Virus record (IMG/VR): IMGVR_UViG_3300009499_000053
Direction: 5' to 3' (one strand)
DNA: 64,000 bases
Source of the DNA: a virus
In this document: positions 5,140 to 58,020 of the stretch, piece by piece
Numbering within the stretch: position 1 is the first letter of the stretch
How the letters are laid out: every line of letters starts with the position of its first letter
Made by a program: the position numbers and the translations under genes
The notes under the pieces: model-generated
Databases searched by the model: none
What the model saw: only the letters and a program-made list of their open reading frames with translations
What the model was told of the DNA's origin: nothing

Positions 5140-5377
5140 TTCAGGTCTTTGCCCTAACCTTAAAGAATGTGGAGAATGGAGAGGAGAATGGTATTGGGGA
5201 TTCTGTCATCAAGACTTTGCCTGGTCACGATGCCCTCTGTTTATAAAGACAATCAACCCAAGTTCTAGATATCTAGGTATGGAAACCTTCCTTAAGTATA
5301 CTCAGTTAGAAGTAATGAGAAAGGCGTTGAAAGAGAATGTCAAAACCTATACAGGGAAACGTAGAAGTAATCACTAA
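5120..5377 (+). CDS. small Cys-rich protein with internal NPSSR motif
   Basis: CPNLKEC...C...CP, then INPSSR. Confidence 0.55.
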   Translation: MEDAGYNSGLCPNLKECGEWRGEWYWGFCHQDFAWSRCPLFIKTINPSSRYLGMETFLKYTQLEVMRKALKENVKTYTGKRRSNH

Positions 5378-6209
5378 GAAGAACTGGAAGAGGATTAAGC
5401 AGGAAGTAGAGGACTCTGTTCTCCGAGCCTGGAGAAATAGTAAACTTATTGTCCCTAGAATGGCCCTAGACTTCCGAGTACACTTCCAAGAAGTATATGC
5501 ATCATCAACTGGTAGAATCTGGGCTTTTACCCCTTTCTGGAGAGGAAGAGTCTTTACCGATGTTATCATGATGCATGAGTTTCTCCATTGGGCTATATAT
5601 CCTATAGATCTATGGAAGGGACTCTCTGACATGTTCAAGGCACGAAGAATGTTAGCAGAGGATCTTAAGTGGAAACCTACAAACAAGGAAACTGACCTCT
5701 ATGGAGAGGTAGAGGACTGGTCAGGTTTTGAATATGACATTACAGAATTCAGCTTTGTCCAGAATATCTTAGGAGACTATCTAATCAATCTTCATATACA
5801 TGATAACCATCCTATTCTCTTTGCTGATCTATGGAAGTTCCTTTACCATGATGGAACCTTCTATGAGCAACAGAAACAACTAAAGAGAGACTCTACCTTT
5901 ATTCTCTACCTATCAGCATACCCTGATCTTCTAAGTGACATAAAGGAAGAAGTTACCCTGATAGATCCAAAGTCAGAGAAGGACAAGGATAAGATCATAG
6001 ACATTATAGTAGAAGTACGACATGGTAGAATGAGTAAGGTCTACGCCATTAAGGAACTGACTAAGATCTTTCATCCGTACATAGTACAGGATCAGAAGGA
6101 TTCTAAGGGTAACAAGGGAGCAGAACCAAAGTGTCCTAAGTGTGGTCACGATGAGTTTGAGGTAGTAGGGTACGAGGATCCAAAGACAGGGAAGTGGGTA
6201 GATGTCTAA
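5337..6209 (+). CDS. HExxH metallopeptidase-like protein (MoxR/VWA-associated), C-terminal CxxC
   Basis: MHEFLHW, downstream NILGDYLIN, C-terminal CPKC. Confidence 0.65.
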   Translation: MSKPIQGNVEVITKKNWKRIKQEVEDSVLRAWRNSKLIVPRMALDFRVHFQEVYASSTGRIWAFTPFWRGRVFTDVIMMHEFLHWAIYPIDLWKGLSDMFKARRMLAEDLKWKPTNKETDLYGEVEDWSGFEYDITEFSFVQNILGDYLINLHIHDNHPILFADLWKFLYHDGTFYEQQKQLKRDSTFILYLSAYPDLLSDIKEEVTLIDPKSEKDKDKIIDIIVEVRHGRMSKVYAIKELTKIFHPYIVQDQKDSKGNKGAEPKCPKCGHDEFEVVGYEDPKTGKWVDV

Positions 6210-6372
6210 AGGATACTTTAACCCTTCAATGAGACATGATCTACATTTCCATGATAATTGGGGAGATCATGAGTGTCCAGCTAATAAATGTGAGTACATT
6301 GTCTTTGATGACTTTGGATACAGAATCGTCTATTGTAAGAACTGTGGTCAAGCAGATAGAAGGAAGCTATAG
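6202..6372 (+). CDS. small Zn-binding protein, N-terminal FNPSMR (not in ORF track)
   Basis: Manual translation MSKGYFNPSMRHDLHFH...CPANKC...YCKNCGQADRRKL*. Confidence 0.6.
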   Translation: MSKGYFNPSMRHDLHFHDNWGDHECPANKCEYIVFDDFGYRIVYCKNCGQADRRKL

Positions 6373-6383
6373 AGGATGAACAG

Positions 6384-6545
6384 ATGCCTAAGAGAATAGC
6401 ATGCCCTAATTGCAAAGGACATCTTAAGAGAGGGAGCCTAGCTCTAGATGAGAGAGCCTGGGAATGTGAGAATTGTCATACGATCTTTACAGATAAATAC
6501 CCAGTAGAAGAAAAGAAGGGAAAGTTTAACCCCAGTAAAAGATAA
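6384..6545 (+). CDS. Zn-ribbon protein ending FNPSKR (not in ORF track)
   Basis: Manual translation MPKRIACPNC...WECENC...KGKFNPSKR*. Confidence 0.65.
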   Translation: MPKRIACPNCKGHLKRGSLALDERAWECENCHTIFTDKYPVEEKKGKFNPSKR

Positions 6546-6564
6546 GTGTAATAGAACAGTATGA

Positions 6565-6765
6565 GTGACTCTCAGAATGAGTAAATTAGCACCTATAATA
6601 TGTCCAAGATGTCTTAGTAAGGAACTAAGGATAGCAAAGGCTACGTTTGTCACTAAACCTTATCTGATTCACTACTGTCTATGTGGATGGGTAGAAACTA
6701 GAAAATACCGTAAAGGATTAGTACCTATGATCCTTAAAGATTCATTTAACCCGAGTATGAGATAG
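6565..6765 (+). CDS. Zn-ribbon protein ending FNPSMR
   Basis: CPRC...CLCG; terminal motif. Confidence 0.65.
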   Translation: MTLRMSKLAPIICPRCLSKELRIAKATFVTKPYLIHYCLCGWVETRKYRKGLVPMILKDSFNPSMR

Positions 6766-6766: not shown

Positions 6767-6967
6767 ATGTATAAACCTCCTCAGATATTTCAACCTAAAC
6801 CTGCCCCTGTTTATCAATTCTTGGAGCTAAAGTGTCCTCATTGTGGGTATGAGATCTACCGACCCTACCGTGAATTAACAGACTTACCATCAGAAATACT
6901 ATGTATAAAGTGTGGAAAGCACTACTCTGTATCCAGTCAATGGAATCCTTCGAGGAGATACTTATGA
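6767..6967 (+). CDS. Zn-ribbon protein ending WNPSRRYL
   Basis: CPHC...CIKC; motif. Confidence 0.65.
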   Translation: MYKPPQIFQPKPAPVYQFLELKCPHCGYEIYRPYRELTDLPSEILCIKCGKHYSVSSQWNPSRRYL

Positions 6968-7152
6968 GTAAACATGTTCATTGTCCAAAATGTAATGCCC
7001 AAGGTTACTTAAAGGCACATAAAAAAGAATGGAGTATATTCATTTGCCGAAGATGCAGATGTCTCTTCTCAGTGTCACAGAGCGATTTAGAACAGATACA
7101 TGAGACATCTGACACAGAAGTGGTACTCCCCTTTAATCCTAGTTCGAGGTAG
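6964..7152 (+). CDS. Zn-ribbon protein ending FNPSSR
   Basis: CPKC...CRRC; ATG 6964 overlaps the previous stop. Confidence 0.65.
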   Translation: MSKHVHCPKCNAQGYLKAHKKEWSIFICRRCRCLFSVSQSDLEQIHETSDTEVVLPFNPSSR

Positions 7153-7157: not shown

Positions 7158-7409
7158 ATGAGAAGACCCCGGTTTGAGGAAGTCTGTATCCATCCTTTCT
7201 ATCTTAAGAAGAAGAAACTATGTATCCACCCAGATGACAGAATCTTCTTCTTTGAACATCCGGCCTTCTTCGATAAATCTTTCTTTAGTTCTGATAAAGT
7301 ATTCAAACCCTTTCAGTTAGGAATGATTTATGGATATGAGGTCTTTGTTCAGGATGATATGCAGATTATGCTCCTAAGTATGAATGGAGGAAAGAGTGTT
7401 GAAGATTAA
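7158..7409 (+). CDS. hypothetical protein
   Basis: Coupled ORF with a duplicated CIHP. Confidence 0.45.
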   Translation: MRRPRFEEVCIHPFYLKKKKLCIHPDDRIFFFEHPAFFDKSFFSSDKVFKPFQLGMIYGYEVFVQDDMQIMLLSMNGGKSVED

Positions 7410-8397
7410 GATAAAATGTACTAAATGTAATTGGGAAGCAGTAGTAGAGGTATCACGCTCCCCCTTAGGTTCTCTAAAACCAGGTAAAGCTATCAAGGGT
7501 ACAGGGAAAGGACTGAAAGTTAAGTGGACAAAGGAACAACTGGATAAGGTTATGGATGCTGCTGGAGGACTAGGTGCCTCTAGAGATGAGCTAGGTCAGG
7601 TAGGTATCCGTGTCCCCATTCCTCAGTGGGTAGACGCCCTGGAACGTAGAAGACTTAGACAGTTTGTAAGGAAGCATCTAAAGGTCTCTAAAGATTTAAG
7701 AAACGCTCAGGGAGAAAGAAGTCAAGTATCTACTGCTCCTTGGCAAATGGGAGATTCTTTCAAAGATGTAGATCTAGCCTCTAGTGAAATTGCAGCCTAT
7801 GGAGTTCCCGATCTTCGTCTTATTCCTGGAGTAACCCTACAGAAGAGGGTCTTTGAGACTACTAAGGGAGGAGACCGAGAGATACTTAGGGGAATAAAGT
7901 TCTTTAACATCATAGATGTCTCAGGAAGTATGTTCGGCGGATCAAGTCAAAGTCAAGGAAATATCGATAAGGTTCACAAAGCACTTATGATGGCCGAAGA
8001 GACATCAAAGATCTGTAAGAAGTTAGGTTATGACTACAACTTGTCTATCTTCTCTGGTATAGCTACTAGGATTCCCAAGAGAAAGATCAAAAGATTCTTT
8101 AAATCTGAGACTGAAAGAGCAACCTATCCTGGATGGAATGGAGGAACTACACTATCATCTGCTCTCGGACTATACGATCTAAAGGAACTCAAGGATGGAA
8201 ACTTGGTCATAATGTCTGACATGGATATATCTGACTCTGAGGAATCTAAGAAGAAGTTGAAAGAGATAGGAAATGTAACCTCATCCTTCAAGGTAGTAAT
8301 TATAGAGTATCGTTCTCAACTAAGGAAAGAAAGATTAATAAGAACAAGGGAACTATTTCCAGATAAGAAAGTACAAATACTCCGAATAGCAATCTAA
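7384..8397 (+). CDS. von Willebrand factor A (VWA) domain protein
   Basis: MIDAS DVSGS, GGT, SD motifs; N-terminal CTKC. Confidence 0.8.
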   Translation: MEERVLKIKIKCTKCNWEAVVEVSRSPLGSLKPGKAIKGTGKGLKVKWTKEQLDKVMDAAGGLGASRDELGQVGIRVPIPQWVDALERRRLRQFVRKHLKVSKDLRNAQGERSQVSTAPWQMGDSFKDVDLASSEIAAYGVPDLRLIPGVTLQKRVFETTKGGDREILRGIKFFNIIDVSGSMFGGSSQSQGNIDKVHKALMMAEETSKICKKLGYDYNLSIFSGIATRIPKRKIKRFFKSETERATYPGWNGGTTLSSALGLYDLKELKDGNLVIMSDMDISDSEESKKKLKEIGNVTSSFKVVIIEYRSQLRKERLIRTRELFPDKKVQILRIAI

Positions 8398-8586: not shown

Positions 8587-8808
8587 ATGTGGCCGTATAG
8601 AGACTTTGCATCCTTCAAAACGCCAATAAATCTTGACAAATGCAAGGTCTGTGGTACCTATGTCTGTCTTGTACCAGTGACCTATGGCAATGCATTGTTT
8701 GGATACGTCTGTGGCCTCTGTGCAGGGATCCTATTCACGAAAGGGAACCTTAGAATAGGTTTCAACCCAAGCTCTAGAAACCCCTGGAGGATAGTGAAAG
8801 TAAAATGA
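8587..8808 (+). CDS. Zn-finger protein with FNPSSR
   Basis: CKVC...CGLC; motif near C-terminus; start uncertain. Confidence 0.55.
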   Translation: MWPYRDFASFKTPINLDKCKVCGTYVCLVPVTYGNALFGYVCGLCAGILFTKGNLRIGFNPSSRNPWRIVKVK

Positions 8809-9032
8809 CAAAAGTAATACTTGAAGAAGATTCCTGGATTAGATGGATAGACAAAAAAGGCAATGGTACAATAAGAGTAGGTCAAGTTAAGAGACGAATA
8901 AAGGATAAGCCCTTTGATAGTCAGAATATAACAGTGGCTACTCCTAACTATGGAGAAACACAGTTAGATGTTAGTACAATCATAGAGGTCTTCCCTAAAA
9001 TAACAATAAGATTTAATCCTTCGGAGCGATAG
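8805..9032 (+). CDS. small protein ending FNPSER
   Basis: Terminal motif. Confidence 0.6.
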   Translation: MTKVILEEDSWIRWIDKKGNGTIRVGQVKRRIKDKPFDSQNITVATPNYGETQLDVSTIIEVFPKITIRFNPSER

Positions 9033-9034: not shown

Positions 9035-9325
9035 ATGAAACTACAAGGAATGTTCAAATGCCCTCAATGCGGAGGAGAGTTTGATGCATGCAGACCCAGT
9101 GGTCCTGGTAGAATCTGGGCTCATTGTGTAAGTTGTTCTCTAGTAGTTATTATAGAAGACTACAAACTCTGGCTAAGACGAGCACAGAGAAGAAAACAAC
9201 AAAAAACGGGAGTTCATGGTAGTAAATCGTATTCAGGAACGTTAGTCTACCCAGGTTTTGATACAGGGAAAACAAAGGAAATAGAGAAAAAGGAAAAGGA
9301 TGAATACAATCCAACGGAGAGATAA
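9035..9325 (+). CDS. Zn-ribbon protein ending YNPTER
   Basis: CPQC...CVSC; terminal motif. Confidence 0.65.
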   Translation: MKLQGMFKCPQCGGEFDACRPSGPGRIWAHCVSCSLVVIIEDYKLWLRRAQRRKQQKTGVHGSKSYSGTLVYPGFDTGKTKEIEKKEKDEYNPTER

Positions 9326-9329: not shown

Positions 9330-9602
9330 ATGCCTTATATAAAAGAAGAGGATCGTGTACCGATTAGTAGATATCTAAATGATCTGATAGCAATACTCAG
9401 AATCAAGACAGATAAGGGAAAACAAAGCAATGGTCAGGTAGTTTATGCTATCTATAGGATTATCAAGGAAGTCTATGGAGAAGGACGTTTTGAAGTAAAG
9501 AGTAATGCTTTGAAAGTCTTGGATGCTGCAGGTAAGGAATACTACAGACGAATCATGGTTCCGTACGAAAAAGAGAAGATCAAGGAAAATGGAGACGTCT
9601 AG
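9330..9602 (+). CDS. conserved viral hypothetical protein (MPYIK-type)
   Basis: MPYIKEEDR...EYYRRIMVPYEKEKIKENGDV, a pattern I recognise from a widespread small phage family. Confidence 0.6.
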   Translation: MPYIKEEDRVPISRYLNDLIAILRIKTDKGKQSNGQVVYAIYRIIKEVYGEGRFEVKSNALKVLDAAGKEYYRRIMVPYEKEKIKENGDV

Positions 9603-9864
9603 TTTGGGTCTCAATTACTTTAAGTGTAAAATCTGTGGATTCTCTTTTCTAGAACTGTACAATCTTGAACACCATATGCTAACTTATCATAGGAAAGAAC
9701 ATACCCTAAAGAGGAAACAAGGTAACTTTGGTTGTTATTGGAGATGTTCCGAGTGTGGAATGGCATTCAAGAATGTGAAAACAGCTCTCAATCATTCAGG
9801 AGAAATGAATCATAATCCGACAGAGAGAATCGAACTGGATGGCTTTAATCCTTCGAGGAGATAA
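9589..9864 (+). CDS. C2H2 zinc-finger protein with two motif copies (HNPTER, FNPSRR*)
   Basis: CKIC...HHMLTYH; CSEC...H...H. Confidence 0.65.
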   Translation: METSSLGLNYFKCKICGFSFLELYNLEHHMLTYHRKEHTLKRKQGNFGCYWRCSECGMAFKNVKTALNHSGEMNHNPTERIELDGFNPSRR

Positions 9865-9978: not shown

Positions 9979-10023
9979 ATGGCAGAGAAAGAATTCAATC
10001 CAACAAAAAGAGGGGAAAATTAA
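9979..10023 (+). CDS. 14-aa micro-ORF made essentially of the motif (MAEKEFNPTKRGEN)
   Basis: Starts 2 nt after the upstream stop; its stop abuts the next ATG at 10024. Confidence 0.45.
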   Translation: MAEKEFNPTKRGEN

Positions 10024-10368
10024 ATGAGTGATGAAGGAAAGAAAAAGATCAAGATAGACAGGTATAATCCAAGCTCTAGGAAGAACGAAATAATAGAGAT
10101 AGAGCAGGTACAAATAGGAACAGTAAAGTACAAAGACATTGGAGATAACTTTGAATGCCTTGTAGGGATAGAGACAGAAGATTCGGATGCTGGTTTGTAC
10201 AGAGGAAAGAGTGTAACTATGAACTCACCCAGGAGAATATCTAGGATTAGGTGGGATGTATCTAAACACCACAGCCTAGGAGATAGAGTAGATCTTAGTC
10301 CCAGAGATATTCAAGTCCTAGATGCAATCCTTCAATACCTAAAGAAAATGGGTTACCATGTGGGATAA
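10024..10368 (+). CDS. hypothetical protein with N-terminal YNPSSR
   Basis: Motif near residue 14. Confidence 0.6.
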   Translation: MSDEGKKKIKIDRYNPSSRKNEIIEIEQVQIGTVKYKDIGDNFECLVGIETEDSDAGLYRGKSVTMNSPRRISRIRWDVSKHHSLGDRVDLSPRDIQVLDAILQYLKKMGYHVG

Positions 10369-10566
10369 GAAAGATGGGCAAAGTGAAAGACATACTAAAG
10401 AAACTTAGAGGAAAACAAGGGACTATTTCAGATCTAGAGATTCCACCGGATCATGTTAGATGTTCAAGGTGTAAAAAGACAGTTCCTAAGGGAAAGGCTA
10501 CTGTTGACCTAGAGGCCTCGACAAGACGTACAGAGGTATGGGTCTGTGATGGATGTTTCTTTGGAC

Positions 10567-10809
10567 ATGCAATCTAAGGAATACCCCTCTAATCTTCGGG
10601 GAAGACTCTCGGAACAGACCAGATGTGAAGTCTGTAAAGACTTTCTCAATGATTCTTGGTGTCTAACAAGCGTATGTCAGATTTGTTGTGAGAAGGGACG
10701 TTGTAGGAGAAAAGAACATTGTTGTGTCTATCCAGATATCCTAGTTCGTCTACAGTATCAGAAAAAAGAAAGTGTGATCTATAATCCATCTAAGAGGATA
10801 AAGATTTGA
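10567..10809 (+). CDS. Cys-rich protein ending YNPSKRIKI
   Basis: Multiple Cys; motif. Confidence 0.6.
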   Translation: MQSKEYPSNLRGRLSEQTRCEVCKDFLNDSWCLTSVCQICCEKGRCRRKEHCCVYPDILVRLQYQKKESVIYNPSKRIKI

Positions 10810-11090
10810 CCCTTAAAAAGAGAGAATGTTATTACTGTAAGACAGATGTTACTGAGGGTGAACGTCTGAGGATCAGTTTAATGGCAGGAAAGGCTAAGTA
10901 TGTTGGTACTAGCTTACAAAGTAGTGGACAGCTTGAAAAGATTTATGTCTGTTCTGACTGTTCTAGAGATTACTTTGAACTCATAGTTATGGGACACAGT
11001 AATACGCACAATCACTTAAAGTTAATACTCCAAAGAATGATTCCTACTAAGAGAATAAAGAAAAGAGAATGGAACCCTACGGAGAGATAA
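10806..11090 (+). CDS. Zn-finger protein ending WNPTER
   Basis: CYYC...CSDC; terminal motif. Confidence 0.65.
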   Translation: MTLKKRECYYCKTDVTEGERLRISLMAGKAKYVGTSLQSSGQLEKIYVCSDCSRDYFELIVMGHSNTHNHLKLILQRMIPTKRIKKREWNPTER

Positions 11091-13499: not shown

Positions 13500-13688
13500 A
13501 TGAAAGATCAATATGGTAGACTACTTCAGTGTCCTCAGTGTCGTGGATATATGATTATAGGAGTCCATGTACCTTTTGCTTCTAGCAGACATCGATGCAC
13601 AGATTGTGGTTATAAGGGTAGGGAAGAGTCCTTTAGGGCTGTTCCAGCTAAGGCTGTAATTGAATACTTTAATCCATCGGAGAGATAG
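13500..13688 (+). CDS. Zn-ribbon protein ending FNPSER
   Basis: CPQC...CTDC; terminal motif. Confidence 0.65.
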   Translation: MKDQYGRLLQCPQCRGYMIIGVHVPFASSRHRCTDCGYKGREESFRAVPAKAVIEYFNPSER

Positions 13689-13690: not shown

Positions 13691-13978
13691 ATGAAAAATA
13701 GAACCCTTTCATCTAAGAAGAAGACACTTGACTTTGATAAGATAGAGATAATCATCAGAAGTCTAACCCTAGACGAGTTGACTATAGTCCTTGGAAAGAT
13801 AAAGAACGGTCCTCTTCATGGAGCAAAGCAGGCACTTGAATATGGAATAGTATCTCCTCCCAGTATCAAGAATAATCCTGGAAGATTAAACGCTGAGATT
13901 GCACTTGTTGTTGCAACAGAGATTCTAACACTATCAGGACTATATGAGAAACCCCCCTATAACCCCTCCGAGAGATAA
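13691..13978 (+). CDS. small protein ending YNPSER
   Basis: Terminal motif; no Cys. Confidence 0.6.
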   Translation: MKNRTLSSKKKTLDFDKIEIIIRSLTLDELTIVLGKIKNGPLHGAKQALEYGIVSPPSIKNNPGRLNAEIALVVATEILTLSGLYEKPPYNPSER

Positions 13979-13980: not shown

Positions 13981-14217
13981 ATGGGCTTCATTTCATCATC
14001 AACAGTAGAGTTTAAAAAGGCAAAGTACCCAAAGCTCACGATGGAAACTATCTGTGCTAACTGTGGAACAATGGGTTGGAAGACTATGATGAGGAAAACG
14101 GGTAGACTATGGGTCTGTAATAGCTGTTGGAAACTATTCAAAGAAGAGATAATGAACCAAAAGACCGACAATGTAACAGTTAGGAAAAGAAGGTTTAATC
14201 CATCGGAGAGGTACTGA
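13981..14217 (+). CDS. Zn-finger protein ending FNPSERY
   Basis: CANC...CNSC; motif. Confidence 0.65.
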   Translation: MGFISSSTVEFKKAKYPKLTMETICANCGTMGWKTMMRKTGRLWVCNSCWKLFKEEIMNQKTDNVTVRKRRFNPSERY

Positions 14218-14381
14218 TGGAAACCACATGTTCCTTTTGTGGAAGGAAATCTAAGATTACTACGATAATCAGTAGTTTCTTTATTTGTGAGAGATGTCAT
14301 CTAGAGTATGAAAAGACAAAAGCTGGAATGACTACAATGGAAAAGTATAAAGATAAACGATTTAACCCATCGGAGAGATAA
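14217..14381 (+). CDS. Zn-finger protein ending FNPSER (not in ORF track)
   Basis: METTCSFCG...ICERCH...KRFNPSER*. Confidence 0.65.
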   Translation: METTCSFCGRKSKITTIISSFFICERCHLEYEKTKAGMTTMEKYKDKRFNPSER

Positions 14382-14383: not shown

Positions 14384-14596
14384 ATGGAATGTCCAACCTG
14401 TAATAAGGAGAGTCAACCTCTCTGTCCATTCTATGATGGATGTAAATATAGACATTCACAGCTCCAAGCAGAGAGGGTTTGCTGGAAGACACCACACTAC
14501 TGTGACATCTATAGAAAGAAGAACAGAAGAGCACCCCCGACAGAACGAGAGGAGGAGTTTAATCCTTCAGAGAGGGATAATGATGTTGATATGTAG
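14384..14596 (+). CDS. Cys-rich protein with FNPSER near C-terminus
   Basis: CPTC, several more Cys; motif. Confidence 0.6.
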   Translation: MECPTCNKESQPLCPFYDGCKYRHSQLQAERVCWKTPHYCDIYRKKNRRAPPTEREEEFNPSERDNDVDM

Positions 14597-14789
14597 TGAG
14601 TGTCTTATGGACTATAAGCTCTCCAAACCAATGTTCCTTACCTCAAGGAGTAAAAGTCTTTGTGAAGATTGTAATCGGATCAGAACTTGTTTTAATATTC
14701 CTGCAAGTGTATACTCTTACAAGGATCTAAGGGACGTTAAGATACTAGAGAGAAAGAGAAAGAAATCATTCAACCCTTCGGAGAGGTAA
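14580..14789 (+). CDS. Zn-finger protein ending FNPSER
   Basis: CSEC...CEDC; terminal motif. Confidence 0.6.
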   Translation: MMLICSECLMDYKLSKPMFLTSRSKSLCEDCNRIRTCFNIPASVYSYKDLRDVKILERKRKKSFNPSER

Positions 14790-14792: not shown

Positions 14793-15026
14793 TTGGGTGG
14801 ACGAGTTAGTTGGGAAGATGCGTATACACCTTGTAAGAAAGCGATAGTACCTTTATATGGGGAGAAGAAGAAAGTAAAGTATAGTTATTGTAATGACTGT
14901 CAGTTTTCTTTTGAGAGGAAGAGTCGGAGGAAAGATTGTCCCAAGTGTGGATCCTATAACATTTCTTTTATGGGAGGGAGTTTTGTCCCAGTAAAGGGGA
15001 TGTATTGGAATCCTTCAGAGAGATGA
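14793..15026 (+). CDS. Zn-ribbon protein ending WNPSER
   Basis: CNDC...CPKCGS; terminal motif. Confidence 0.65.
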   Translation: MGGRVSWEDAYTPCKKAIVPLYGEKKKVKYSYCNDCQFSFERKSRRKDCPKCGSYNISFMGGSFVPVKGMYWNPSER

Positions 15027-15349: not shown

Positions 15350-16846
15350 ATGGAAAACATATGGAAAGTAGATATGAATCGTCTAATAAAACTAGTAGCA
15401 GAGAGAATGTATAGTGATCCAATTAAAGCAGGAATAAGAGAACTAATCACAAATAGTCTAGACGCTCGGGTAGGACAGGTAACGATCCGGATAGACTATG
15501 ATGATATTCAGAAGACATTACATTATTCAGACTCAGGAATAGGAATAGATCCTAAGACCTTTAAGGATATCTATGGCAAGATAGCATCAGGCCATAAGAG
15601 ACGTAAGAACTCCAGAGGCTTCTTTGGTATAGGGAGAATGTCCCTAATTGCTGCATCTAAGAAAGGAATGATAGTATCCTACAAGGATAATAGAGTCTAT
15701 ACCTGGTTCTTTAACAAGAAGGGATGGAATGGACCTGAGGTACAGGATGATGAGGATAAGATAGGCCATGGAGTCTACATCTATTTCAATGGTATAGAGA
15801 TAGAGGATCTAGGAGAGATGGAGCTATGGATCCAGAAGACTTTTTCTGTTCCCCTAGCGAGAAAGGAATGTACCATCCAGTTCCAGATGGGGAGTATTTC
15901 TAGTCTAATTGATGATCAGTGGACTGTGTACCCTGAGATTAAGACTAAGAATGGTCCAATTCTGTTCTATGCTAAGGAACAGACAGATGGAACTCTTCAT
16001 GTATGTCAGAAGGGAATCTTAGTAAAGGAAGAGAGTTATACCGGTCTAACTGTGTTCGCAGACCAGAGCTTCTTAGAGATTAAGACAGATAGGGAAGGTT
16101 TTATTAATAATGCTAAGTATCGTCAGTTCAACTCTATTGTGAAGAAGGAACTGGCTAAGATAAGACCACAGAAGAGCTTCAAGAAGATGGAAGTGCATTT
16201 CATTCGTAGACTTATGAAGGAGTTTAAGAAGTATTGGCTTGTCCAGGCAAAGAAGACTGATCCTGTTCTGGAGAAAGTAATACTAGAGTTTCCTAAGACA
16301 GGGAAAGAGTTAGTTACAGATAAACCAGAGACTAAGGAGACTATTCCACTTATTGATCAGCCAGGGTTTGAAGAGGTCAAGAAAGAACTAGAACTATGGG
16401 ACAATGTACCAAGTGAAGGACTAGATGGACCTTTCCCACCACCAGAAGGACAAGAACACAAGGAAGGAACAAAGAGCACCGAGGTTATCAAGGCTGAAGA
16501 TGTAGAAGGGGATAGAGCAGGTTACAGTACAGCTGCAGAAGCAGAAGACAATAAAATAATCAAGGAGAAGACGGTAGTAATAAAAGGAGCTAAACCCGTT
16601 GATCTTGGAGAGGATTATCCAATGGTCTTCTTTGAGACTGATCCATTCATACTTGTCTTCAATACCTCACATCCAGTCTTTAAACAACTGGTAGAGAAGG
16701 GGAAACTTAGCTCTGCTCAGTTAGCTGTTCTATTTGAGAGGATGTTTGAGTGTGCATACACTGATCGTTTCCCAGTAGAATCACCCGAAGAGTTGAAGAA
16801 AAGATGGAAGGAAGTCGATCTGAAACTCAAGGAAATATTCAAGTAG
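15350..16846 (+). CDS. GHKL (Hsp90/MORC-like) ATPase
   Basis: RELITNSLDA, DSGIGI, GFFGIG Bergerat motifs; acidic linker. Confidence 0.8.
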   Translation: MENIWKVDMNRLIKLVAERMYSDPIKAGIRELITNSLDARVGQVTIRIDYDDIQKTLHYSDSGIGIDPKTFKDIYGKIASGHKRRKNSRGFFGIGRMSLIAASKKGMIVSYKDNRVYTWFFNKKGWNGPEVQDDEDKIGHGVYIYFNGIEIEDLGEMELWIQKTFSVPLARKECTIQFQMGSISSLIDDQWTVYPEIKTKNGPILFYAKEQTDGTLHVCQKGILVKEESYTGLTVFADQSFLEIKTDREGFINNAKYRQFNSIVKKELAKIRPQKSFKKMEVHFIRRLMKEFKKYWLVQAKKTDPVLEKVILEFPKTGKELVTDKPETKETIPLIDQPGFEEVKKELELWDNVPSEGLDGPFPPPEGQEHKEGTKSTEVIKAEDVEGDRAGYSTAAEAEDNKIIKEKTVVIKGAKPVDLGEDYPMVFFETDPFILVFNTSHPVFKQLVEKGKLSSAQLAVLFERMFECAYTDRFPVESPEELKKRWKEVDLKLKEIFK

Positions 16847-17019
16847 ACTTCAACCCCTCAGAGAGAAAGGACAGACGAAAGAGGGTACTTAAGGCCCTTA
16901 AGGTTCTGGAGAGTACAGAGTATCTAACTGAGGAAGAATGGGATAAACTTAGTAGATTAAGGGAAAAGTCACGAAGGAGAGACTTTGTAAGATGGATGAA
17001 AAACCGAGGACTAAAGTAG
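16804..17019 (+). CDS. small protein with N-terminal FNPSER
   Basis: Motif in frame. Confidence 0.5.
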   Translation: MEGSRSETQGNIQVDFNPSERKDRRKRVLKALKVLESTEYLTEEEWDKLSRLREKSRRRDFVRWMKNRGLK

Positions 17020-17337: not shown

Positions 17338-17628
17338 ATGAGTCATGGAATGGTAAGTAAGAAGAGAAAGGTAATATTAACCTTCAATCCTTCATCTAGA
17401 AACCCAGTTACATTAGATGAGGATGGGTTGGACTTCATTGAAAGTACAATCCGAAACGCAGGAATAAAGTTTGCTGATGAACAGGATAAGCAGACCATGA
17501 TTATCCTTATGGGGATAATTAGGAAGAAACTTAAACATGAATCTGACTTTGCTCAGAAACTTAGAGAGTTTCTAGAGATAGATAAGTTGATACAGGAGAA
17601 TAAGGTTGAATGGTGTGTTAAGCAATGA
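17338..17628 (+). CDS. small protein with N-terminal FNPSSR
   Basis: Motif in frame. Confidence 0.55.
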   Translation: MSHGMVSKKRKVILTFNPSSRNPVTLDEDGLDFIESTIRNAGIKFADEQDKQTMIILMGIIRKKLKHESDFAQKLREFLEIDKLIQENKVEWCVKQ

Positions 17629-19244: not shown

Positions 19245-19574
19245 ATGAAGTACCATAGAATTGCGAAGCAGTGTCCATTCTGTCCCACTATTAAATCAGC
19301 TTATACCTTTAAGACATTTCATGGATTACGTAAGCACATCCTCCAATGGCATCTTCAAACAAAGAAAAGAAGGAGTTGGTATATTTGGTCAAGAGGACGG
19401 GGAAGATTCCCGAACAAAGAGAAACCTGCTTTCATCAGAGTCTATAAAGTGAAGTACTCTGAATATCGTGATATTCCTGTAAATGGGATGGCTCACGTAG
19501 AAGCAATAGTTCAAGATCACTGTAAAGAATTTAATCCATCTATGAGGGGGATAAAAGTATGGCCGATGAATTAG
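19245..19574 (+). CDS. C2H2 zinc-finger protein with FNPSMR
   Basis: CPFC...HILQWH; motif near C-terminus. Confidence 0.6.
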   Translation: MKYHRIAKQCPFCPTIKSAYTFKTFHGLRKHILQWHLQTKKRRSWYIWSRGRGRFPNKEKPAFIRVYKVKYSEYRDIPVNGMAHVEAIVQDHCKEFNPSMRGIKVWPMN

Positions 19575-20244: not shown

Positions 20245-20661
20245 ATGACTAAAGATAGGCCCAGTTGGTACGCCTCAAGATGGAGAAGCTCCTATAATTG
20301 GGATACCAATAAATCAACAGTTCTGCATGAGAAACCAATTCGTTGTCCTTACTGTGGATATTATATGGGATTCCATATAACAACAGGATATGGATCACAT
20401 TCCTCTGACAATTACTGGATTTGTCATCAATGTCGAATGAGTTTACCAAATCAACTAGACTTCAGACCTGAGTTTCTTGAAGGGGCTAGGAAGAACTACC
20501 GTAAACATCTGAAGAATGAAATGGAGAATACGAAAGGAAAGTTTGATAGACTGAAAAACCTTTATAACCAATATGGAGTATACTTTACTAAAGAGGAGAA
20601 ACGTGACAGGCTGATAGAGACGATTGAGGAACAGGGGAATAAGAATGCAATACAAGAATAA
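20245..20661 (+). CDS. Zn-ribbon protein
   Basis: CPYC...CHQC. Confidence 0.55.
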   Translation: MTKDRPSWYASRWRSSYNWDTNKSTVLHEKPIRCPYCGYYMGFHITTGYGSHSSDNYWICHQCRMSLPNQLDFRPEFLEGARKNYRKHLKNEMENTKGKFDRLKNLYNQYGVYFTKEEKRDRLIETIEEQGNKNAIQE

Positions 20662-21025
20662 GGATAAAACGAATCCTACTTCAAAGGACTTCGGGGCATC
20701 TATGCATACCCCTACCAAAGTTCTAAAGGAAGCCAAGCAAGCTAACAGAGGAAAGAGAGTAATGAGGAAGGTCTTTGACGCAAGGAGATACCCTGATAGG
20801 GAGTCAATAGACTTAGGTGTCTGTTGGATGTGTTGGATGGATCTTACAGAGGAACCATTAGAGAAGTGGAGAAGAGAACCCTACAGCTTTGTTATCCCTC
20901 ATGATCAAGTTTGTCCCTTATGTGGATACATGCACTGGAAGGGAAGGATATGGTATCCATTTAGGTTCATTAGAGGTTATATTGGTAATCCATCAAGTAG
21001 ACATGGAATTAGGGGAAGGAAGTAA
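20624..21025 (+). CDS. Zn-finger protein with GNPSSR
   Basis: CWMC...CPLC; motif near C-terminus. Confidence 0.55.
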   Translation: MRNRGIRMQYKNKDKTNPTSKDFGASMHTPTKVLKEAKQANRGKRVMRKVFDARRYPDRESIDLGVCWMCWMDLTEEPLEKWRREPYSFVIPHDQVCPLCGYMHWKGRIWYPFRFIRGYIGNPSSRHGIRGRK

Positions 21026-41579: not shown

Positions 41580-41761
41580 AGAAAAAGACCCATGCTGAGG
41601 AGAATTACGGAAAGTTAACCAAGGAAGATATCCTGAAGATCATAACAAGTTACCTAGGAAAATACGCGGTAGAATCAATAGTTGTAAATCCTCAAGAACT
41701 TAGGATAGTCTACTACGATGAGGAGAAGAAGTTTAACCCTACTAAGAGGGGAAAACCATGA
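41576..41761 (+). CDS. small protein ending FNPTKRGKP
   Basis: Motif. Confidence 0.55.
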   Translation: MKKKTHAEENYGKLTKEDILKIITSYLGKYAVESIVVNPQELRIVYYDEEKKFNPTKRGKP

Positions 41762-42732: not shown

Positions 42733-43768
42733 ACTACTCTGGATCTCAGACTATCCCCTAAAGGGTACATCATTCGGTAATGTAACCTTGGAACTCTGTA
42801 GAAGGATACAGAACTATAAGATATACATCCTGGGAATAGGTTACACAGGAACCCCCATAGCTCCTTTCCCTAATATGGATATACTTCCTCTGGAGAATGC
42901 TAAACAGATAGAGTACTATGTAAGGAAGCTTAAGCCAGATAAGACGGTTGTATACCACTCATTCTACTTCTTAGAACAACTAACTGGAATAGAGTTACCA
43001 GACAATACAGTAGGTTACATTCCAGTAGAGGGAGAGAAACTCCCTGCTAACCTAGTAGCTTACCTAACTAACTTTGAGAACCTGATAGTTCCCTCTAAGT
43101 ATTCACAGGGAATACTACGAAAGGAGGGACTTCACTCAGAGATTGTCTACCATGGAGTAGATAGTAACTTCTTCACTCCTGCAAATAAACCACCATTAAA
43201 GGAGTTCAGGTGGGGTTACTTAGGACTTAATGACATTAGGAAACAGATACCTAGGATTATAGAGGCATACTCAAGACTACCAAGGAGGACAAGGGGATCC
43301 CTAGCAATAGCAGCAAAGGGAACTGGACACTATCTTCTCTCAGCAGTAGCTCAACAGTTTAGGGTGTCTCCTATCTGGATAGAGAAGAAGTACTATGGGA
43401 TACCAATGGCTAAACAGAATATCCTAAGTTTCTACCGTAATCTATCATGCTATGTAAACTGTTCATCAGAGGCATTTGGTCTACCTAACCTAGAGGCTGC
43501 TGGGGCAGGGATACCAAGTATAGCACTAGATCATGGGGCTTCTAAGGAGATAATGGGAGGCGGGTCTCTCTATGTTAAGGTTAAGGATATGCTTGATACG
43601 AACATAGGACAACTGGGTCTTGCAGACAGAGATGACCTATACAGAAAGATGAAGGTAATCTTAGAGGTTCCTCCAGAACGAAAGAGGTTAATCAAGGCAG
43701 GAAAGAGGAGAGCTAAGATCTTCACATGGGAGAAGGCATTGAAGCAACTACTGGATGTGATAGATTGA
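42716..43768 (+). CDS. GT4 glycosyltransferase
   Basis: HGVD, RKQ, EAFGLPNLEA. Confidence 0.85.
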   Translation: MIKVNKLLWISDYPLKGTSFGNVTLELCRRIQNYKIYILGIGYTGTPIAPFPNMDILPLENAKQIEYYVRKLKPDKTVVYHSFYFLEQLTGIELPDNTVGYIPVEGEKLPANLVAYLTNFENLIVPSKYSQGILRKEGLHSEIVYHGVDSNFFTPANKPPLKEFRWGYLGLNDIRKQIPRIIEAYSRLPRRTRGSLAIAAKGTGHYLLSAVAQQFRVSPIWIEKKYYGIPMAKQNILSFYRNLSCYVNCSSEAFGLPNLEAAGAGIPSIALDHGASKEIMGGGSLYVKVKDMLDTNIGQLGLADRDDLYRKMKVILEVPPERKRLIKAGKRRAKIFTWEKALKQLLDVID

Positions 43769-44025
43769 GGATAGAGATAGTAAGGAAGAAGGCAGAGAAC
43801 CCAATAGATAAGGATCCTATGATTACCTGGTTATGGGATGCCCTTAATCCCCTCTTTAAGGAGACAGATGGAAAGGTAATGGTCTACATGTCAGATGACC
43901 TAGGACCTAATGAGGATCAGAGGGGTATGGTTATCTACCTAGAGGGTCTGAAGTCAACAGAGATGCGTATAAGAAAGATTATAGAACTAAATCCGACAAA
44001 TAGGAACTATCAGGAGGAGAAATAA
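43726..44025 (+). CDS. small protein with LNPTNR near C-terminus
   Basis: Motif. Confidence 0.5.
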   Translation: MGEGIEATTGCDRLRIEIVRKKAENPIDKDPMITWLWDALNPLFKETDGKVMVYMSDDLGPNEDQRGMVIYLEGLKSTEMRIRKIIELNPTNRNYQEEK

Positions 44026-44414: not shown

Positions 44415-44531
44415 ATGAGTATAGGGAAGATGATTTTTGAGAAGAACCCAGATCTCTTAGAGGAAGAGGAACTGGTAGATGTAGATAACCCTAGTTCAAG
44501 ATATTTTGGAATTGATCAGAATGATAAGTGA
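44415..44531 (+). CDS. 38-aa acidic microprotein with DNPSSR (not in ORF track)
   Basis: MSIGKMIFEKNPDLLEEEELVDVDNPSSRYFGIDQNDK*. Confidence 0.45.
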   Translation: MSIGKMIFEKNPDLLEEEELVDVDNPSSRYFGIDQNDK

Positions 44532-56038: not shown

Positions 56039-56718
56039 GGAAGAAAAAAGTAAAGATTAGTTTCTGTATTCTAAACTACTATGAGGACTGGTTAGTAGTT
56101 AGGACCATATCACAGGTTTATGATTTCGTTGATGAGATACTAATTGGGGATACTTCCAGAGGTAAAGATCTGATACCCAGAGCGGTAGACGGCCTTCCTA
56201 AGTGTAGGATTGTGCCCGACCCTGGGTTCGATGAGGGAAGCAATTTCAGTTGGTCAGAGTGGAGGAACTATGTTCAGTCATTTGCTAAGGGAGACTGGGT
56301 AATGTGGACTGACCCAGATGAGATATACCCCCTGAACCTAATGAGGAATCTTAGAGGCTGGTTAGAGAGAACGACAGCAGAGGCAATTGGTCTGGTTAGA
56401 ATAGCATATGAAACACACAAACGAATGGTAGTTAGGAACAAGGAACCGAAGATTCGGATATGGAGAAACCTTAACCGAATTAGGTGGTCAAGGAAGATAC
56501 ATGAGAGTCCTGAGGGATTTAAGGACTATGAGATCTGGGATGTGACATATGCCCATGACATTAACTGGTTACCCAGTTTTCCACAGAGGATATACAAGCT
56601 TAAGAAGAGGGAAAGGAGAGGAAACATCCTTCCTAGGATAAAGAAGAATGACCTAGATCCCTACAGAGAACGCTACCCCAATGAGAAAGAGGAAGACGCG
56701 TTTAGATCAAGGGAGTGA
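56035..56718 (+). CDS. GT2 (GT-A) glycosyltransferase
   Basis: VDEILIGD, RN, DPDE, IHE. Confidence 0.75.
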   Translation: MRKKKVKISFCILNYYEDWLVVRTISQVYDFVDEILIGDTSRGKDLIPRAVDGLPKCRIVPDPGFDEGSNFSWSEWRNYVQSFAKGDWVMWTDPDEIYPLNLMRNLRGWLERTTAEAIGLVRIAYETHKRMVVRNKEPKIRIWRNLNRIRWSRKIHESPEGFKDYEIWDVTYAHDINWLPSFPQRIYKLKKRERRGNILPRIKKNDLDPYRERYPNEKEEDAFRSRE

Positions 56719-56722
56719 CATT

Positions 56723-57334
56723 ATGGCTTCTTCACAAGACCATGCTAAGGCTAAGGCCCTAATAAGAACTAAGAGGGGAAACATCCTTATTGATGTTGGG
56801 GCTAATGATGGTTACTACAGTATGCTACTCAGAAGAAACTTTAAGAAGGTCTATGCCATAGAACCCTTCCCCAAGTCAGTAAGTGTACTCAAGAGAAACC
56901 TTAGGAATGGAAAGATTACCAACGTAGAGGTTCTTCCATTTGCTGTGGGAAGTAGAACAGGGAAGACTAAGATGTACCTCTCCCTAAGGGGAACCAAGTG
57001 TCATAGTCTCCTAAGGGTGGGTGAGAGGACAATCATAGTAGACTGCTACACTCTTAATGACCTCTTTCCAGACTATGAGGGAATAGACCTTATCAAGGTT
57101 GATGTGGAGGGAGGGGAGATTGAGGTTCTCCTGGGAGCAGAGAAGATCATGAAGAACGTAAAGTCATGGTTCATAGAGATGCATGACCTAGGGGAGATCC
57201 TAAGGGGACTACCACATAGTAGGGAGAGAACGAGGGGACACAATGATCGAATAGATAAGATGTTAAAGGGTTATGGTTATGAGACTGAATGGATACTAGA
57301 AAGATGGGTATATGCGGAGAGAAAGAAATGCTAA
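56723..57334 (+). CDS. FkbM-family methyltransferase
   Basis: DVGANDG, IEP, IKVDVEGGE. Confidence 0.88.
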   Translation: MASSQDHAKAKALIRTKRGNILIDVGANDGYYSMLLRRNFKKVYAIEPFPKSVSVLKRNLRNGKITNVEVLPFAVGSRTGKTKMYLSLRGTKCHSLLRVGERTIIVDCYTLNDLFPDYEGIDLIKVDVEGGEIEVLLGAEKIMKNVKSWFIEMHDLGEILRGLPHSRERTRGHNDRIDKMLKGYGYETEWILERWVYAERKKC

Positions 57335-57492
57335 GAAAGTCTAGAGGGATCTCCCTCGTATTCTCAGGAGAAGGATCACAGGCACGTAGAATCCTGCGAC
57401 CAATGAATGATCCTCTTACTGGAGAACACCTAAGCAATAATGGTGTATCTACACCTACCTGCTTATCTAAGCGTTTTGAGGAGTGTACATAG

Positions 57493-57856
57493 TATGGACT
57501 CTCTGTCTATTGTAGAGATAATGCCTATAGAGTATGATAAGAGAAGGAAAGTAGTACATACATACTCAAAGATATGTACACAGGACATGACTGCTCAACG
57601 TCTAAGGGACCTCTACATAAACCTGGGATTTAAGAATGCTCCTGTAGTTACCCACCTTGGAGAGGCATTCCTCATAACGTTCTTCCCCAAACCACCTATC
57701 ATCATCTCCAAGAGTGATGGGAGAATGTACACCTTTGTTGGTGGTAAGTGGGATCTTAAGGAAGCACAACATCAAGCGTCTTTAGTAATGAGGGTACTAG
57801 TTGAGTTTGACCTAGTAGGGAACCATAAGAGGAGAAGTGTACGGAGGAGAAAGTAA
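57493..57856 (+). CDS. hypothetical protein
   Basis: ORF in the same tightly packed run. Confidence 0.5.
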
Positions 57857-58020
57857 TGGAAGGAACTGGCTGTTCAGTTGTCAATAGTAAAAAATGGCAC
57901 ATATTTGATTGTCCCTACTGTAGCTTTAAAACAAGGATTTGGGATATTATGCAGGAACATATGAAGACGCACCCTAATCCAATACTAAAGAAACCAGGAT
58001 TTAATCCATCAAGAAGATAG
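57856..58020 (+). CDS. C2H2 zinc-finger protein ending FNPSRR (not in ORF track)
   Basis: MEGTG...CPYC...HMKTH...PGFNPSRR*. Confidence 0.65.
   Translation: MEGTGCSVVNSKKWHIFDCPYCSFKTRIWDIMQEHMKTHPNPILKKPGFNPSRR

Follow-up and report, generated by a model that had tools for sequence, protein, structure and literature searches.

In an uncultured archaeal-type tailed virus with a 133 kb genome, about 40 small and mostly unrelated accessory proteins carry a six-residue peptide tag, usually close to a protein end. The core reads Asn-Pro-Ser/Thr-x-Arg and is accompanied by an aromatic residue, either immediately in front of it or one to two residues behind. Judged by sequence, this is the same motif as one in the tail of the virus's own terminase, which is a new finding here. 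We read the tag as a portable docking motif of the short linear type that sits in disordered tails and was either copied from the terminase tail or is common to both, and give this reading a probability of about 0.5.

Distribution of the tag and its carriers

We compared six-frame translations of the window (the whole 64,000-nucleotide stretch analysed) with second-order Markov shuffles. N-P-[ST]-x-R matched 42 times on the + strand against about 1.7 expected; one of these runs across a stop codon and was discounted, leaving 41 copies in 39 genes. Phe, Tyr or Trp precedes the tag in 31 copies (0.13 expected), and Arg follows x at 31/32 aromatic-Asn-Pro-Ser/Thr sites. The copy at 25184 is absent from a relative's counterpart and is probably due to chance. 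On the - strand, there were four bare matches (1.2 expected), none with an aromatic residue in front. The initial annotation had placed all copies in the frame of + strand open reading frames, and every copy does lie within a plausible + strand gene; out-of-frame and reverse-strand copies did not exceed chance. It had also given the range as 5252-58020, where copies are indeed found, but the left limit has to be moved, with an N-terminal copy at 667-684 and a further one beyond the window, at genome position 88.

In total, 37 of the 124 + strand genes have the tag, as do 36 of the 82 encoding 140 residues or fewer (Table 1). The tag is terminal: of the 39 copies inside called genes, 35 are no more than 20 residues away from a protein end, whereas 20,000 simulated trials gave a mean of 21 and never more than 33, and 27 are within 10 residues of the C-terminus (simulated mean 5.6). 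The pattern of tag directly before stop was counted 16 times (0.2 expected), 15 of these being real and the other the match with the internal stop. Six small proteins have the extended motif N-P-S-S-R-x-F/L-G. Many carriers are zinc ribbons, while others are unrelated, and the bodies had nothing in common beyond CxxC pairs. Some carriers form a loose family of zinc ribbon plus tag that can be aligned over its full length; it has undergone local expansion at 13.5-15 kb, the region in which the copies resemble each other most as DNA. The tag also sits at either end of bodies without detectable similarity. Both of the origins proposed at the outset occur.

Table 1. Copies of the tag and related variants, all on the + strand. 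Positions are those of the window; L numbers denote relatives.
Position	Copy	Gene	Length (aa)	Remarks
667-684	N-terminal, residues 3-8; Met, not aromatic, in front	661-876	71	orthologue in L105 has tag
5252-5269	internal terminase-type variant, then aromatic-Leu-Gly	5120-5377	85	kept in L105
6217-6234	canonical, near N-terminus	6202-6372	56
6525-6542	canonical, C-terminal end	6384-6545	53	zinc ribbon
6745-6762	canonical, C-terminal end	6565-6765	66
6941-6958	canonical, 2 residues before C-terminus	6767-6967	66	kept in L105
7132-7149	canonical, C-terminal end	6901-7152	83
8609-8626	degenerate, C-terminal; His for Asn, Pro-Ser-Lys-Arg retained	8414-8629		gene always after vWA gene; orthologues in L167, L168, L169 end x-Pro-Ser-Lys-Arg
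8761-8778	canonical, 9 residues before C-terminus	8587-8808	73
9012-9029	canonical, C-terminal end	8805-9032	75	lacks zinc ribbon; kept in L105; overlaps gene 9035's ribosome-binding site
9305-9322	canonical (Tyr, Thr), C-terminal end	9035-9325	96
9811-9828	second, upstream copy; His in front	9523-9864	113
9844-9861	canonical, C-terminal end	9523-9864	113
9994-10011	canonical	9979-10023		14-codon mini-ORF, barely more than tag
10063-10080	canonical, near N-terminus (residue 14)	10024-10368	114	N-terminal copy in L169 too
10780-10797	canonical, 3 residues before C-terminus	10546-10809	87
11070-11087	canonical (Trp, Thr), C-terminal end	10806-11090	94
13668-13685	canonical, C-terminal end	13500-13688	62	zinc ribbon; overlaps next gene's ribosome-binding site
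13958-13975	canonical, C-terminal end	13691-13978	95	no zinc ribbon; kept in L117
14194-14211	canonical, 1 residue before C-terminus	13981-14217	78
14361-14378	canonical, C-terminal end	14217-14381	54	zinc ribbon
14558-14575	canonical, 6 residues before C-terminus	14384-14596	70
14769-14786	canonical, C-terminal end	14433-14789
15006-15023	canonical (Trp), C-terminal end, then TGA	14793-15026	77
16849-16866	canonical, near N-terminus (residue 16)	16804-17019	71
17383-17400	canonical, near N-terminus (residue 16)	17338-17628	96	kept in L117, L169
19530-19547	canonical, 8 residues before C-terminus	19245-19574	109	at C-terminal end in L117 orthologue
20984-21001	variant (Gly before, His after Arg), 7 residues before C-terminus	20624-21025	133	kept in L117
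24816-24833	canonical, 5 residues before C-terminus	24690-24851	53
26208-26231	degenerate terminase-type, Val-Lys for Arg-x, then Phe-Gly-Gly; near C-terminus	26043-26246		kept in L117
26480-26497	canonical (Thr), 2 residues before C-terminus	26243-26506	87	kept in L117
26873-26890	variant, aromatics after Arg, 3 residues before C-terminus	26603-26902	99	kept in L117
31339-31356	terminase-type variant, then x-Phe-Gly	31159-31578		first of two in gene
31492-31509	terminase-type variant	31159-31578		second of two in gene
32116-32133	canonical, 15 residues before C-terminus	31915-32181	88
32177-32194	canonical, near N-terminus (residue 9)	32153-32440	95	membrane-type
38071-38094	degenerate terminase-type, Glu for Asn, then Trp-Phe; C-terminus	37846-38097		just upstream of polymerase; related C-terminal copies at same place in L001, L127
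41732-41749	canonical, 3 residues before C-terminus	41576-41761	61	kept in L001, L125
42121-42138	canonical, C-terminal end	41758-42141	127	kept in L001, L125
42365-42382	canonical (Trp, Thr), C-terminal end	ending at 42385
43987-44004	variant (Leu before, Tyr two residues after Arg), 6 residues before C-terminus	43726-44025	99
44484-44501	terminase-type variant	44415-44531	38	micro-protein: acidic linker plus motif; related copy in L001
58000-58017	canonical, C-terminal end	57856-58020	54	zinc ribbon; kept in L022

Conservation as peptide and overlap with ribosome-binding sites

The initial annotation held that the tag is conserved as peptide, not as DNA, pointing to varied codons and to all three stops. 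The counts bear out this codon usage: AAT 27 and AAC 15 for Asn, all four codons for Pro, TCN 21 and AGY 11 for Ser, ACN 10 for Thr, AGA 27, AGG 13, CGA 1 and CGT 1 for Arg, and TAA, TAG and TGA all found after the tag. In a codon-position logo, as was anticipated, information is high at positions 1 and 2, whereas the third position of Pro and Ser/Thr carries almost none. The predicted lack of flanking signals was confirmed as well; no nucleotide was conserved between -30 and -1 or between +21 and +48, and 78-nt windows centred on the tag gave no indication of a hairpin, folding no more stably than random coding windows (mean z -0.20 vs -0.42). With synonymous sites free, flanks unconserved and no hairpin, the tag is evidently kept as a peptide. 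A recombination site or promoter is excluded by the synonymous variation, the unconserved flanks and the lack of excess out-of-frame or reverse copies.

The tag is also conserved across relatives. Orthologues of only 26-58% identity keep it at the same protein end, in relatives with 34% G+C vs 40% in this virus; together with the free synonymous sites and the switching between Ser codon families, this agrees with the proposed selection on the amino acids. It is present in five further relatives (polymerase or vWA identity 60-78%), and a distant clade tolerates Lys for Arg in both terminase and small-protein tags. The closest relative retains tagged small genes less often than untagged ones (11/36 vs 25/46, p 0.04).

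In C-terminal copies, the x-Arg codons and the last base of the Ser/Thr codon form the Shine-Dalgarno sequence of the next gene. Both TCG (1%) and ACG (6%) are little used in this genome, but the tag is enriched for them (7 vs 0.4 expected and 3 vs 0.6 expected). They sit in the string TCG/ACG-GAG-AGR-stop, which serves the following gene as its GGAGAG ribosome-binding site. Because of this overlap, the 3' third of C-terminal copies is under DNA/RNA-level constraint too, and the Shine-Dalgarno sequence explains why, in these copies, x is preferentially Glu and the Ser/Thr codon tends to end in G. Conservation as peptide and not DNA therefore holds for most of the tag, but not wholly for the last third of its C-terminal copies.

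This overlap and the enrichment of rare codons, along with the end-to-end alignment of the expanded zinc-ribbon family, might suggest that the tag has no shared function, being either the end of one diverged paralogue family or gene-junction DNA (ribosome-binding site plus stop) carried along when bodies are exchanged. However, the codons for Phe-Asn-Pro-Ser precede the ribosome-binding site and differ among copies at synonymous sites, and Arg is retained by every N-terminal or internal copy, where there is no downstream start. The carriers also include bodies other than zinc ribbons, some of membrane type, as well as the terminase, and the tag stays fixed while bodies drop to 26% identity. 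The N-terminal copies and the terminase copy largely refute this explanation, which we regard as highly improbable.

The terminase tail and the possible roles of the tag

The large terminase, encoded outside the window, has Asn-Pro-Ser-Ser-Arg-x-Phe in its N-terminal tail. N-P-S-S-R-x-F occurs in 15/15 close-clade orthologues (57-80% identical), within about the first 25 residues of tails that are otherwise variable in sequence, and most of a clade at 41-46% identity has [SN]-P-S-F-[KR]-x-F at the homologous place. Since the distant clade has Ser in the terminase and Asn in the small proteins, co-variation is only partial, which counts against docking. Across 44 terminases, AlphaFold2 gave a mean pLDDT of 87 but values below 50 at residues 1-4 and 9-19, placing the motif in a free tail.

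As a docking motif, the tag would bind a protein, and a single reader may serve both the terminase and the small proteins. A tail with an Asn-Pro turn would insert its Arg and aromatic side chain in one pocket of a common receptor, bringing all carriers to the docking place of the terminase tail. We favour the small terminase or another packaging part (the portal or a neighbouring terminase subunit) as the candidate receptor, by analogy with phage P22, where the small-terminase-binding site maps to residues 1-23 of the large terminase (PMC9611059); in lambda, the large subunit is bound by the C-terminal region of the small terminase (PMC9611059). As in those phages, a short peptide in the first ~25 terminase residues, outside the folded ATPase domain, is conserved in the lineage, and here it is predicted to be disordered and is invariant in 15 orthologues. 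Unlike those peptides, which are unique to terminase, this one is found on about 40 accessory proteins, at either end, and small-terminase binding is putative. It speaks against docking that some 40 carriers from the replication arm would dock to packaging components, and a host protein could read terminase and small proteins alike.

Other short peptides offer partial parallels. The capsid targeting sequence of T4, confined to the N-terminus of a handful of proteins, binds the scaffolding core and is cleaved off by the prohead protease (PMC3012670). The likeness is that one short conserved peptide marks a highly diverse, fast-changing set of small proteins with accessory or defence-related roles, in a virus with possibly sugar-modified DNA; unlike in T4, the tag is mostly C-terminal, is common to terminase and ~40 replication-arm proteins, and has no evident cut site. 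As a terminal docking peptide that may be common to many clients of one hub, the tag also recalls the clamp-binding PIP box (Q-x-x-[LIM]-x-x-[FY]-[FY]), although its sequence does not fit. It is absent from this virus's replication enzymes (polymerase, RadA, nuclease), and no clamp gene was seen in this virus.

With its terminal bias, the tag could also be a degradation signal, by which accessory proteins and terminase would be cleared on schedule by a virus-encoded ATP-dependent protease (ClpP, 22338-22937, with an unfoldase, or the Lon-like protease adjoining the portal). AAA+ protease degrons, such as the ssrA tag and the N- and C-terminal ClpX recognition signals, are likewise short peptides at either free end of unrelated proteins. 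The virus has a true ClpP (Pfam E 2e-38), a Cdc48-like AAA protein and a Lon-type AAA protease, and both tag-bearing clades retain ClpP and Lon. However, the tag differs from those signals in sequence, the link between tag and protease is one of co-occurrence, and ClpP is not linked here to an unfoldase with an ordinary pore loop; as read from its sequence, the Cdc48-like protein has no typical aromatic-hydrophobic-Gly pore loop following Walker A, and its Walker B carries Glu-Asp, not Asp-Glu. No degron on terminase itself is known in other systems, and conservation this strict is unusual for Lon-type degrons. Degradation is putative and, in our view, unlikely.

Lys makes up 21% and Arg 7% of the eight residues preceding the tag. 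This Lys-rich stretch could instead indicate a nucleic-acid-binding tail, its Asn/Ser-Pro turn and basic neighbours resembling the SPKK/SPXX minor-groove motif and tethering zinc-ribbon proteins and terminase to viral DNA that is possibly sugar-modified. Sugar or groove binders typically use aromatic, Asn, Ser and Arg side chains. Many carriers have zinc ribbons, Ser-Pro-Ser-x-Lys forms occur in the distant clade, and the virus has at least seven glycosyltransferase-like genes plus sugar-nucleotide enzymes. Against this, acidic or neutral residues precede the terminase motif, the carrier micro-protein at 44415-44531 is strongly acidic, and SPKK-type motifs come as degenerate repeats and not as one strictly conserved hexapeptide. 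We find such a role quite unlikely.

Covalent processing seems very unlikely. Either a viral peptidase, the DUF2201_N-like HExxH protein (5337-6209) or the prohead protease, would cut after Arg, or an enzyme such as a viral glycosyltransferase would modify Ser/Thr, Asn or Arg. Consistent with this, the 15 copies ending at Arg are joined by others with only 1-15 residues beyond, as if trimmable to the same end; Ser and Thr are interchangeable; and tagged genes lie between split peptidase and vWA genes. However, outside the aromatic variant no conserved residue follows Arg to define a cut, C-terminal cutting would take off only a few residues, and no test linked an enzyme to the tag. Asn-Pro-Ser is a non-acceptor for known N-glycosylation enzymes, which counts against glycosylation.

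Docking to the partner of the terminase tail is thus the reading we prefer, and the tag looks like a previously undescribed docking label that would send many proteins to one partner. For this virus, such docking may serve to recruit accessory proteins to the packaging or replication site, to load them for delivery, or perhaps to control terminase assembly.

Tag enrichment and conservation at the peptide level

The enrichment of the tag (N-P-[ST]-x-R) is real and strong; the plus-strand reading frames contain 42 matches, compared with approximately 1.7 in shuffled sequences. One match contains a stop codon, leaving 41 copies in 39 genes. An aromatic residue (Phe, Tyr or Trp) precedes 31 of the 41 copies and a stop codon directly follows 15, while a six-frame pattern scan of the window found no minus-strand copy with the aromatic residue. 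A literature search for the motif found no description of it.

The initial annotation had argued, from the variety of codons used, that the tag is conserved as peptide and not as DNA. Its statements on codon usage are all correct, and the codon-position logo agrees with them; information is high at positions 1 and 2 and approximately zero at the third position of the Pro and Ser/Thr codons. The 30 bases on either side of the tag carry no information, and folding is no better in the tag regions than in coding windows picked at random. We rejected a DNA or RNA signal (promoter, recombination site, hairpin or ribosome-binding site), as there is no frame-independent, both-strand or intergenic nucleotide conservation.

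The reading is supported, but needs amending in one respect, as the last third of the tag in C-terminal copies overlaps the Shine-Dalgarno site of the next gene. The codons TCG and ACG, otherwise rare here, are enriched in the tag (7 TCG vs 0.4 expected, and 3 ACG vs 0.6), where they are found in the string TCG/ACG-GAG-AGR-stop, with the next start codon 2-12 bases further on. This string is the GGAGAG Shine-Dalgarno site of the downstream gene, and hence Glu at position x is in C-terminal copies largely a DNA-level effect. The Arg is not such a by-product; 31 of the 32 aromatic-Asn-Pro-Ser/Thr sites are followed by it, and these include every N-terminal copy, with no start codon downstream.

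Carrier proteins and related viruses

The tag is carried by 37 of the 124 plus-strand genes, and by 36 of the 82 genes of 140 aa or less. Among the 39 copies inside called genes, 35 lie within 20 residues of a protein end (simulated mean 21) and 27 within 10 residues of the C-terminus (simulated mean 5.6), with six near the N-terminus. The tag forms the last six residues in 15 copies, and the copies have no common residue after the Arg. Where no aromatic residue precedes the tag, one is nearly always present at +1 or +2 after the Arg, and in small proteins the tag is preceded by a Lys-rich stretch. In an all-against-all comparison, the carriers had only CxxC pairs and the tag itself in common. 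Zinc ribbons of 50-80 residues form a loose class that can be aligned over the full length with the tags in register; other carriers lack a zinc ribbon, and the tail of one is of membrane type. Paralogy or junction DNA alone can largely be ruled out as the explanation, given the N-terminal copies, the terminase copy and the unrelatedness of the carrier bodies.

An ORF of 14 codons and an acidic micro-protein of 38 residues contain little beyond the tag; these two carriers could be decoys or remnants. The similar peptide inside the connector/neck-module protein may be due to chance. Several known motifs were also compared with the tag and rejected. The PIP box (Q-x-x-[LIM]-x-x-[FY]-[FY]) requires a Gln and paired aromatics at a spacing not found in the tag; the FlhB/EscU-type N-P-T-H autocleavage site has a His at a position where the tag has none, and the copies lie in terminal tails rather than a folded domain. 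The N-glycosylation sequon and sortase-type signal were ruled out on sequence grounds.

The closest relative is contig JABAOC010000279.1 (also seen as metagenome loci L105, L117, L001, L022 and L170), with 34% G+C and a polymerase 78% identical; a literature search for this accession returned nothing. Its gene order is collinear with the window, and it has approximately 24 tags. In 15 orthologous pairs (26-58% identity), the tag keeps to the same end of the protein, the remainder of which drifts. Tagged small genes are themselves retained less often (11/36 vs 25/46 for untagged ones), and this lower retention, together with local expansions in the window, is the behaviour of accessory genes. 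The tag is also present in four more relatives from other samples (L125, L126, L127 and L169), with 14 copies in 21 kb of L169. In a more distant clade (polymerase 36% and vWA 44-49% identical), the tag is relaxed to Asn-Pro-Ser-x-Lys/Arg, often lacking the aromatic residue and located near the vWA gene; ClpP is present in this clade. Scanning metagenomes with the tag DNA pattern gave approximately 119 loci, nearly all of them single chance hits, among which only L022, L047, L105 and L117 are true relatives. Five further loci (L013, L017, L020, L036 and L074; 47-51% G+C) were rejected as unrelated to the virus, as they contain a non-ORF DNA repeat, spaced at approximately 1.1 kb, in which the tag and stop codon arise by chance.

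This is an uncultured archaeal-type tailed virus (record of 133,079 bp, 40.4% G+C). From 1 to approximately 58.4 kb, all genes are densely packed on the plus strand. They include a MoxR-type ATPase, a split HExxH peptidase/vWA pair, RNase H, a MORC-like ATPase, a true ClpP, ribonucleotide reductase, a Cdc48-like AAA protein, RadA, an ERCC4 nuclease and a family B polymerase, as well as a long block of sugar-nucleotide and glycosyltransferase genes. The subsequent minus-strand genes are those of the virion, among them the major head protein, the portal and a T4-type large terminase; a Lon-type protease gene adjoins that of the portal. Haloarchaeal polymerases come nearest to the viral polymerase, at only 27%, and the terminase of one more distant relative was binned as 'Candidatus Parvarchaeota'. 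The best cellular matches of the ribonucleotide reductase (44-59%) are scattered across many bacterial and archaeal phyla, and hence are uninformative on the host. Querying a phage collection by DNA gave no match, and with the polymerase protein only matches of 22-26% identity; IMG/VR scans with the polymerase and the tag DNA pattern returned nothing.

Two distant relatives, L167 and L168, encode a eukaryote/thaumarchaeal-type topoisomerase IB, with L167 additionally encoding Alba and glutamine synthetase; these genes may hint at the host lineage. In some relatives the polymerase (proteins P0004 and P0011) and terminase genes (P0174, P0194 and P0201) are much longer. LAGLIDADG/homing-endonuclease Pfam hits on P0004, P0174 and P0201 suggest inteins.

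Coordinates of the features discussed, in the window (bases 8066-72065 of the record) unless marked as genome or by locus
Feature	Coordinates	Strand	Remarks
Internal variant of the tag	5252; 31339; 31492; 44484	+	Also in L001, L105
Single tag copy	25184	+	Not kept in relative; probably chance
Local expansions	6-11 kb; 13.5-15 kb	+	
14-codon ORF	9979-10023	+	
Acidic micro-protein	44415-44531	+	38 residues
Zinc-ribbon tag protein	14217-14381	+	
Left MoxR-type/HExxH-peptidase/vWA system	2027-3613; 5337-6209 (peptidase, DUF2201_N-like); 7384-8397 (vWA)	+	Peptidase and vWA split, tagged small genes between
Right MoxR-type/HExxH-peptidase/vWA system	genome 110161-112597		Halves fused (Pfam DUF2201_N + DUF2201)
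Cdc48/AFG2-like AAA protein	27169-28545	+	Single-domain; E 5e-43 to solved structures; 66% conserved in relative; uncharacterised 200-residue N-domain; Glu-Asp in Walker B
Second tag region	genome 109-133 kb; genome 6-9.3 kb (window ~867-1277 at its right edge)	+	
RNA-repair kit	genome 1745-5354; 101221-102330; 125779-128044		Split Ro60 (TROVE + vWA), two RNA ligase-like genes, archease, archaeal-type CCA-adding enzyme
Connector/neck-module protein	genome 75277-75843	-	188 aa; internal Asn-Pro-Ser-Lys-Arg-Phe
Lon-type AAA protease	genome 92275-94524	-	749 aa; adjoins portal, inside head-assembly module; same position in both clades (L170, L171)
Large terminase	genome 96521-98032	-	503 aa; outside the window; motif at residues 13-19
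Topoisomerase IB	L167:12955-14586; L168:12505-14058		

The tag in the terminase tail

A genome-wide scan also located one copy in the N-terminal tail of the large terminase. Each of the 15 close-clade terminases (57-80% identical) carries N-P-S-S-R-x-F within approximately the first 25 residues, in tails otherwise variable in length and sequence. In a 41-46% identical clade, most members have [SN]-P-S-F-[KR]-x-F at the corresponding distance from the first conserved helix. Terminases of this lineage occur in approximately 40 genomes. The terminase motif is exactly the internal variant found in small proteins, in which x-Phe/Leu-Gly comes after the tag, and in the distant clade Lys can take the place of Arg in the terminase motif and small-protein tags alike. 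An AlphaFold2 model of the terminase (44 sequences, mean pLDDT 87) places the start of the first long helix at residue 19, with pLDDT below 50 at residues 1-4 and 9-19, so the motif is predicted to sit in a free tail. This link to the terminase is new, and makes the reader of the tag experimentally findable.

The SPKK/SPXX minor-groove motif is a Ser/Thr-Pro-x-x turn in a basic context, usually repeated. A nucleic-acid-binding tail of this kind would fit the basic flanks of the tag in small proteins and the zinc ribbons, but the terminase flanks are acidic and the motif is single. The Pro is preceded by Asn in the tag, and by Ser in the distant terminases.

Two known systems come nearest, the docking tail at the N-terminus of the P22 and lambda terminases and the capsid targeting sequence of T4. 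In phage P22, the part of the large terminase that binds the small terminase maps to the first 23 residues (review, PMC9611059). The tail described here is alike in its position, within approximately the first 25 residues and before the ATPase fold, and, according to the model, in its likely flexibility outside the folded enzyme; unlike the P22/lambda tail, its motif is copied onto a large number of other proteins. The T4 sequence (PMC3012670) is likewise a short conserved peptide on diverse accessory proteins, but it is strictly N-terminal, whereas 27 of 39 copies here are C-terminal, and it is followed by a prohead-protease cut site, while the tag has no common residue after the Arg. The tag is also shared with the terminase, unlike the T4 sequence.

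A proposed receptor for the tag

The best-supported explanation is that the tag is a short linear docking motif, common to the terminase tail and approximately 40 accessory proteins, with one receptor that would read both alike. By analogy with the known docking tails, the likeliest receptor would be the small terminase or a different component of the packaging machinery, although it may instead be a host protein. The candidate small terminase (177 aa) is encoded directly upstream of the terminase gene, overlapping it, and is conserved in both clades. Its gene spans genome 98001-98534 and that of the portal 94719-96155, both on the minus strand.

The tag could instead be a degron for the viral ClpP or Lon proteases. 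Its exposure at free N- or C-termini fits this. The virus has ClpP and a Lon-type protease, but the only nearby AAA protein (Cdc48-like) has a degenerate pore loop. Alternatively, the tag might be a processing or modification site. The near and the distant clade alike have MoxR, the split peptidase, vWA, ClpP and Lon, and hence their co-occurrence with the tag singles out no virus-encoded reader. Complex prediction with the vWA protein, the DUF2201_N-like peptidase, Mg and a zinc-ribbon tag protein gave 'no answer' (score 0.00), which carries no weight either way. Atlas look-ups gave weak leads only (a BCS1_N-like N-domain for the AAA protein, and DUF2201_N for the peptidase).

The genome also contains a second, unrelated terminal tag (basic residues plus [LFV]-W-x-x-[LIV]-F), mostly N-terminal. 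It is found on approximately 18-20 small plus-strand proteins by a strict Trp-containing pattern, and on approximately 20-40 overall; a 381-aa protein adjoining a DUF2201_N/DUF2201 gene ends in it. Each of the two MoxR/peptidase/vWA systems is located at the start of one tag region. The MIDAS motif of the vWA protein is complete, and 28 homologues conserve it.

If the tag is a docking motif, docking might recruit its carriers to the packaging or replication site, load them for delivery to the next host, or control motor assembly, the last being suggested by the acidic micro-protein and 14-codon ORF, which are little more than the motif. A more elaborate version, which we consider rather unlikely, is protein sorting based on the packaging motor. 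Copies of the terminase peptide would bring dozens of interchangeable accessories to the packaging machinery or site, where they would then either accompany the genome to the next host or gate assembly of the motor; with the second tag, there would be at least two address codes.

To our knowledge, few docking peptides common to many viral proteins have been described; the capsid targeting sequence of T4 and clamp-binding tails are examples. In this virus, nearly half of the small replication-arm genes carry one such peptide, which the DNA-packaging enzyme also has in its tail. The tag could be used to search for members of this clade, and as an affinity handle for the receptor. A single receptor for both would offer a simple and evolvable way of routing accessory proteins as their repertoire changes, probably in the service of host takeover or anti-defence, and the tag would class these otherwise unannotated proteins as one functional group.
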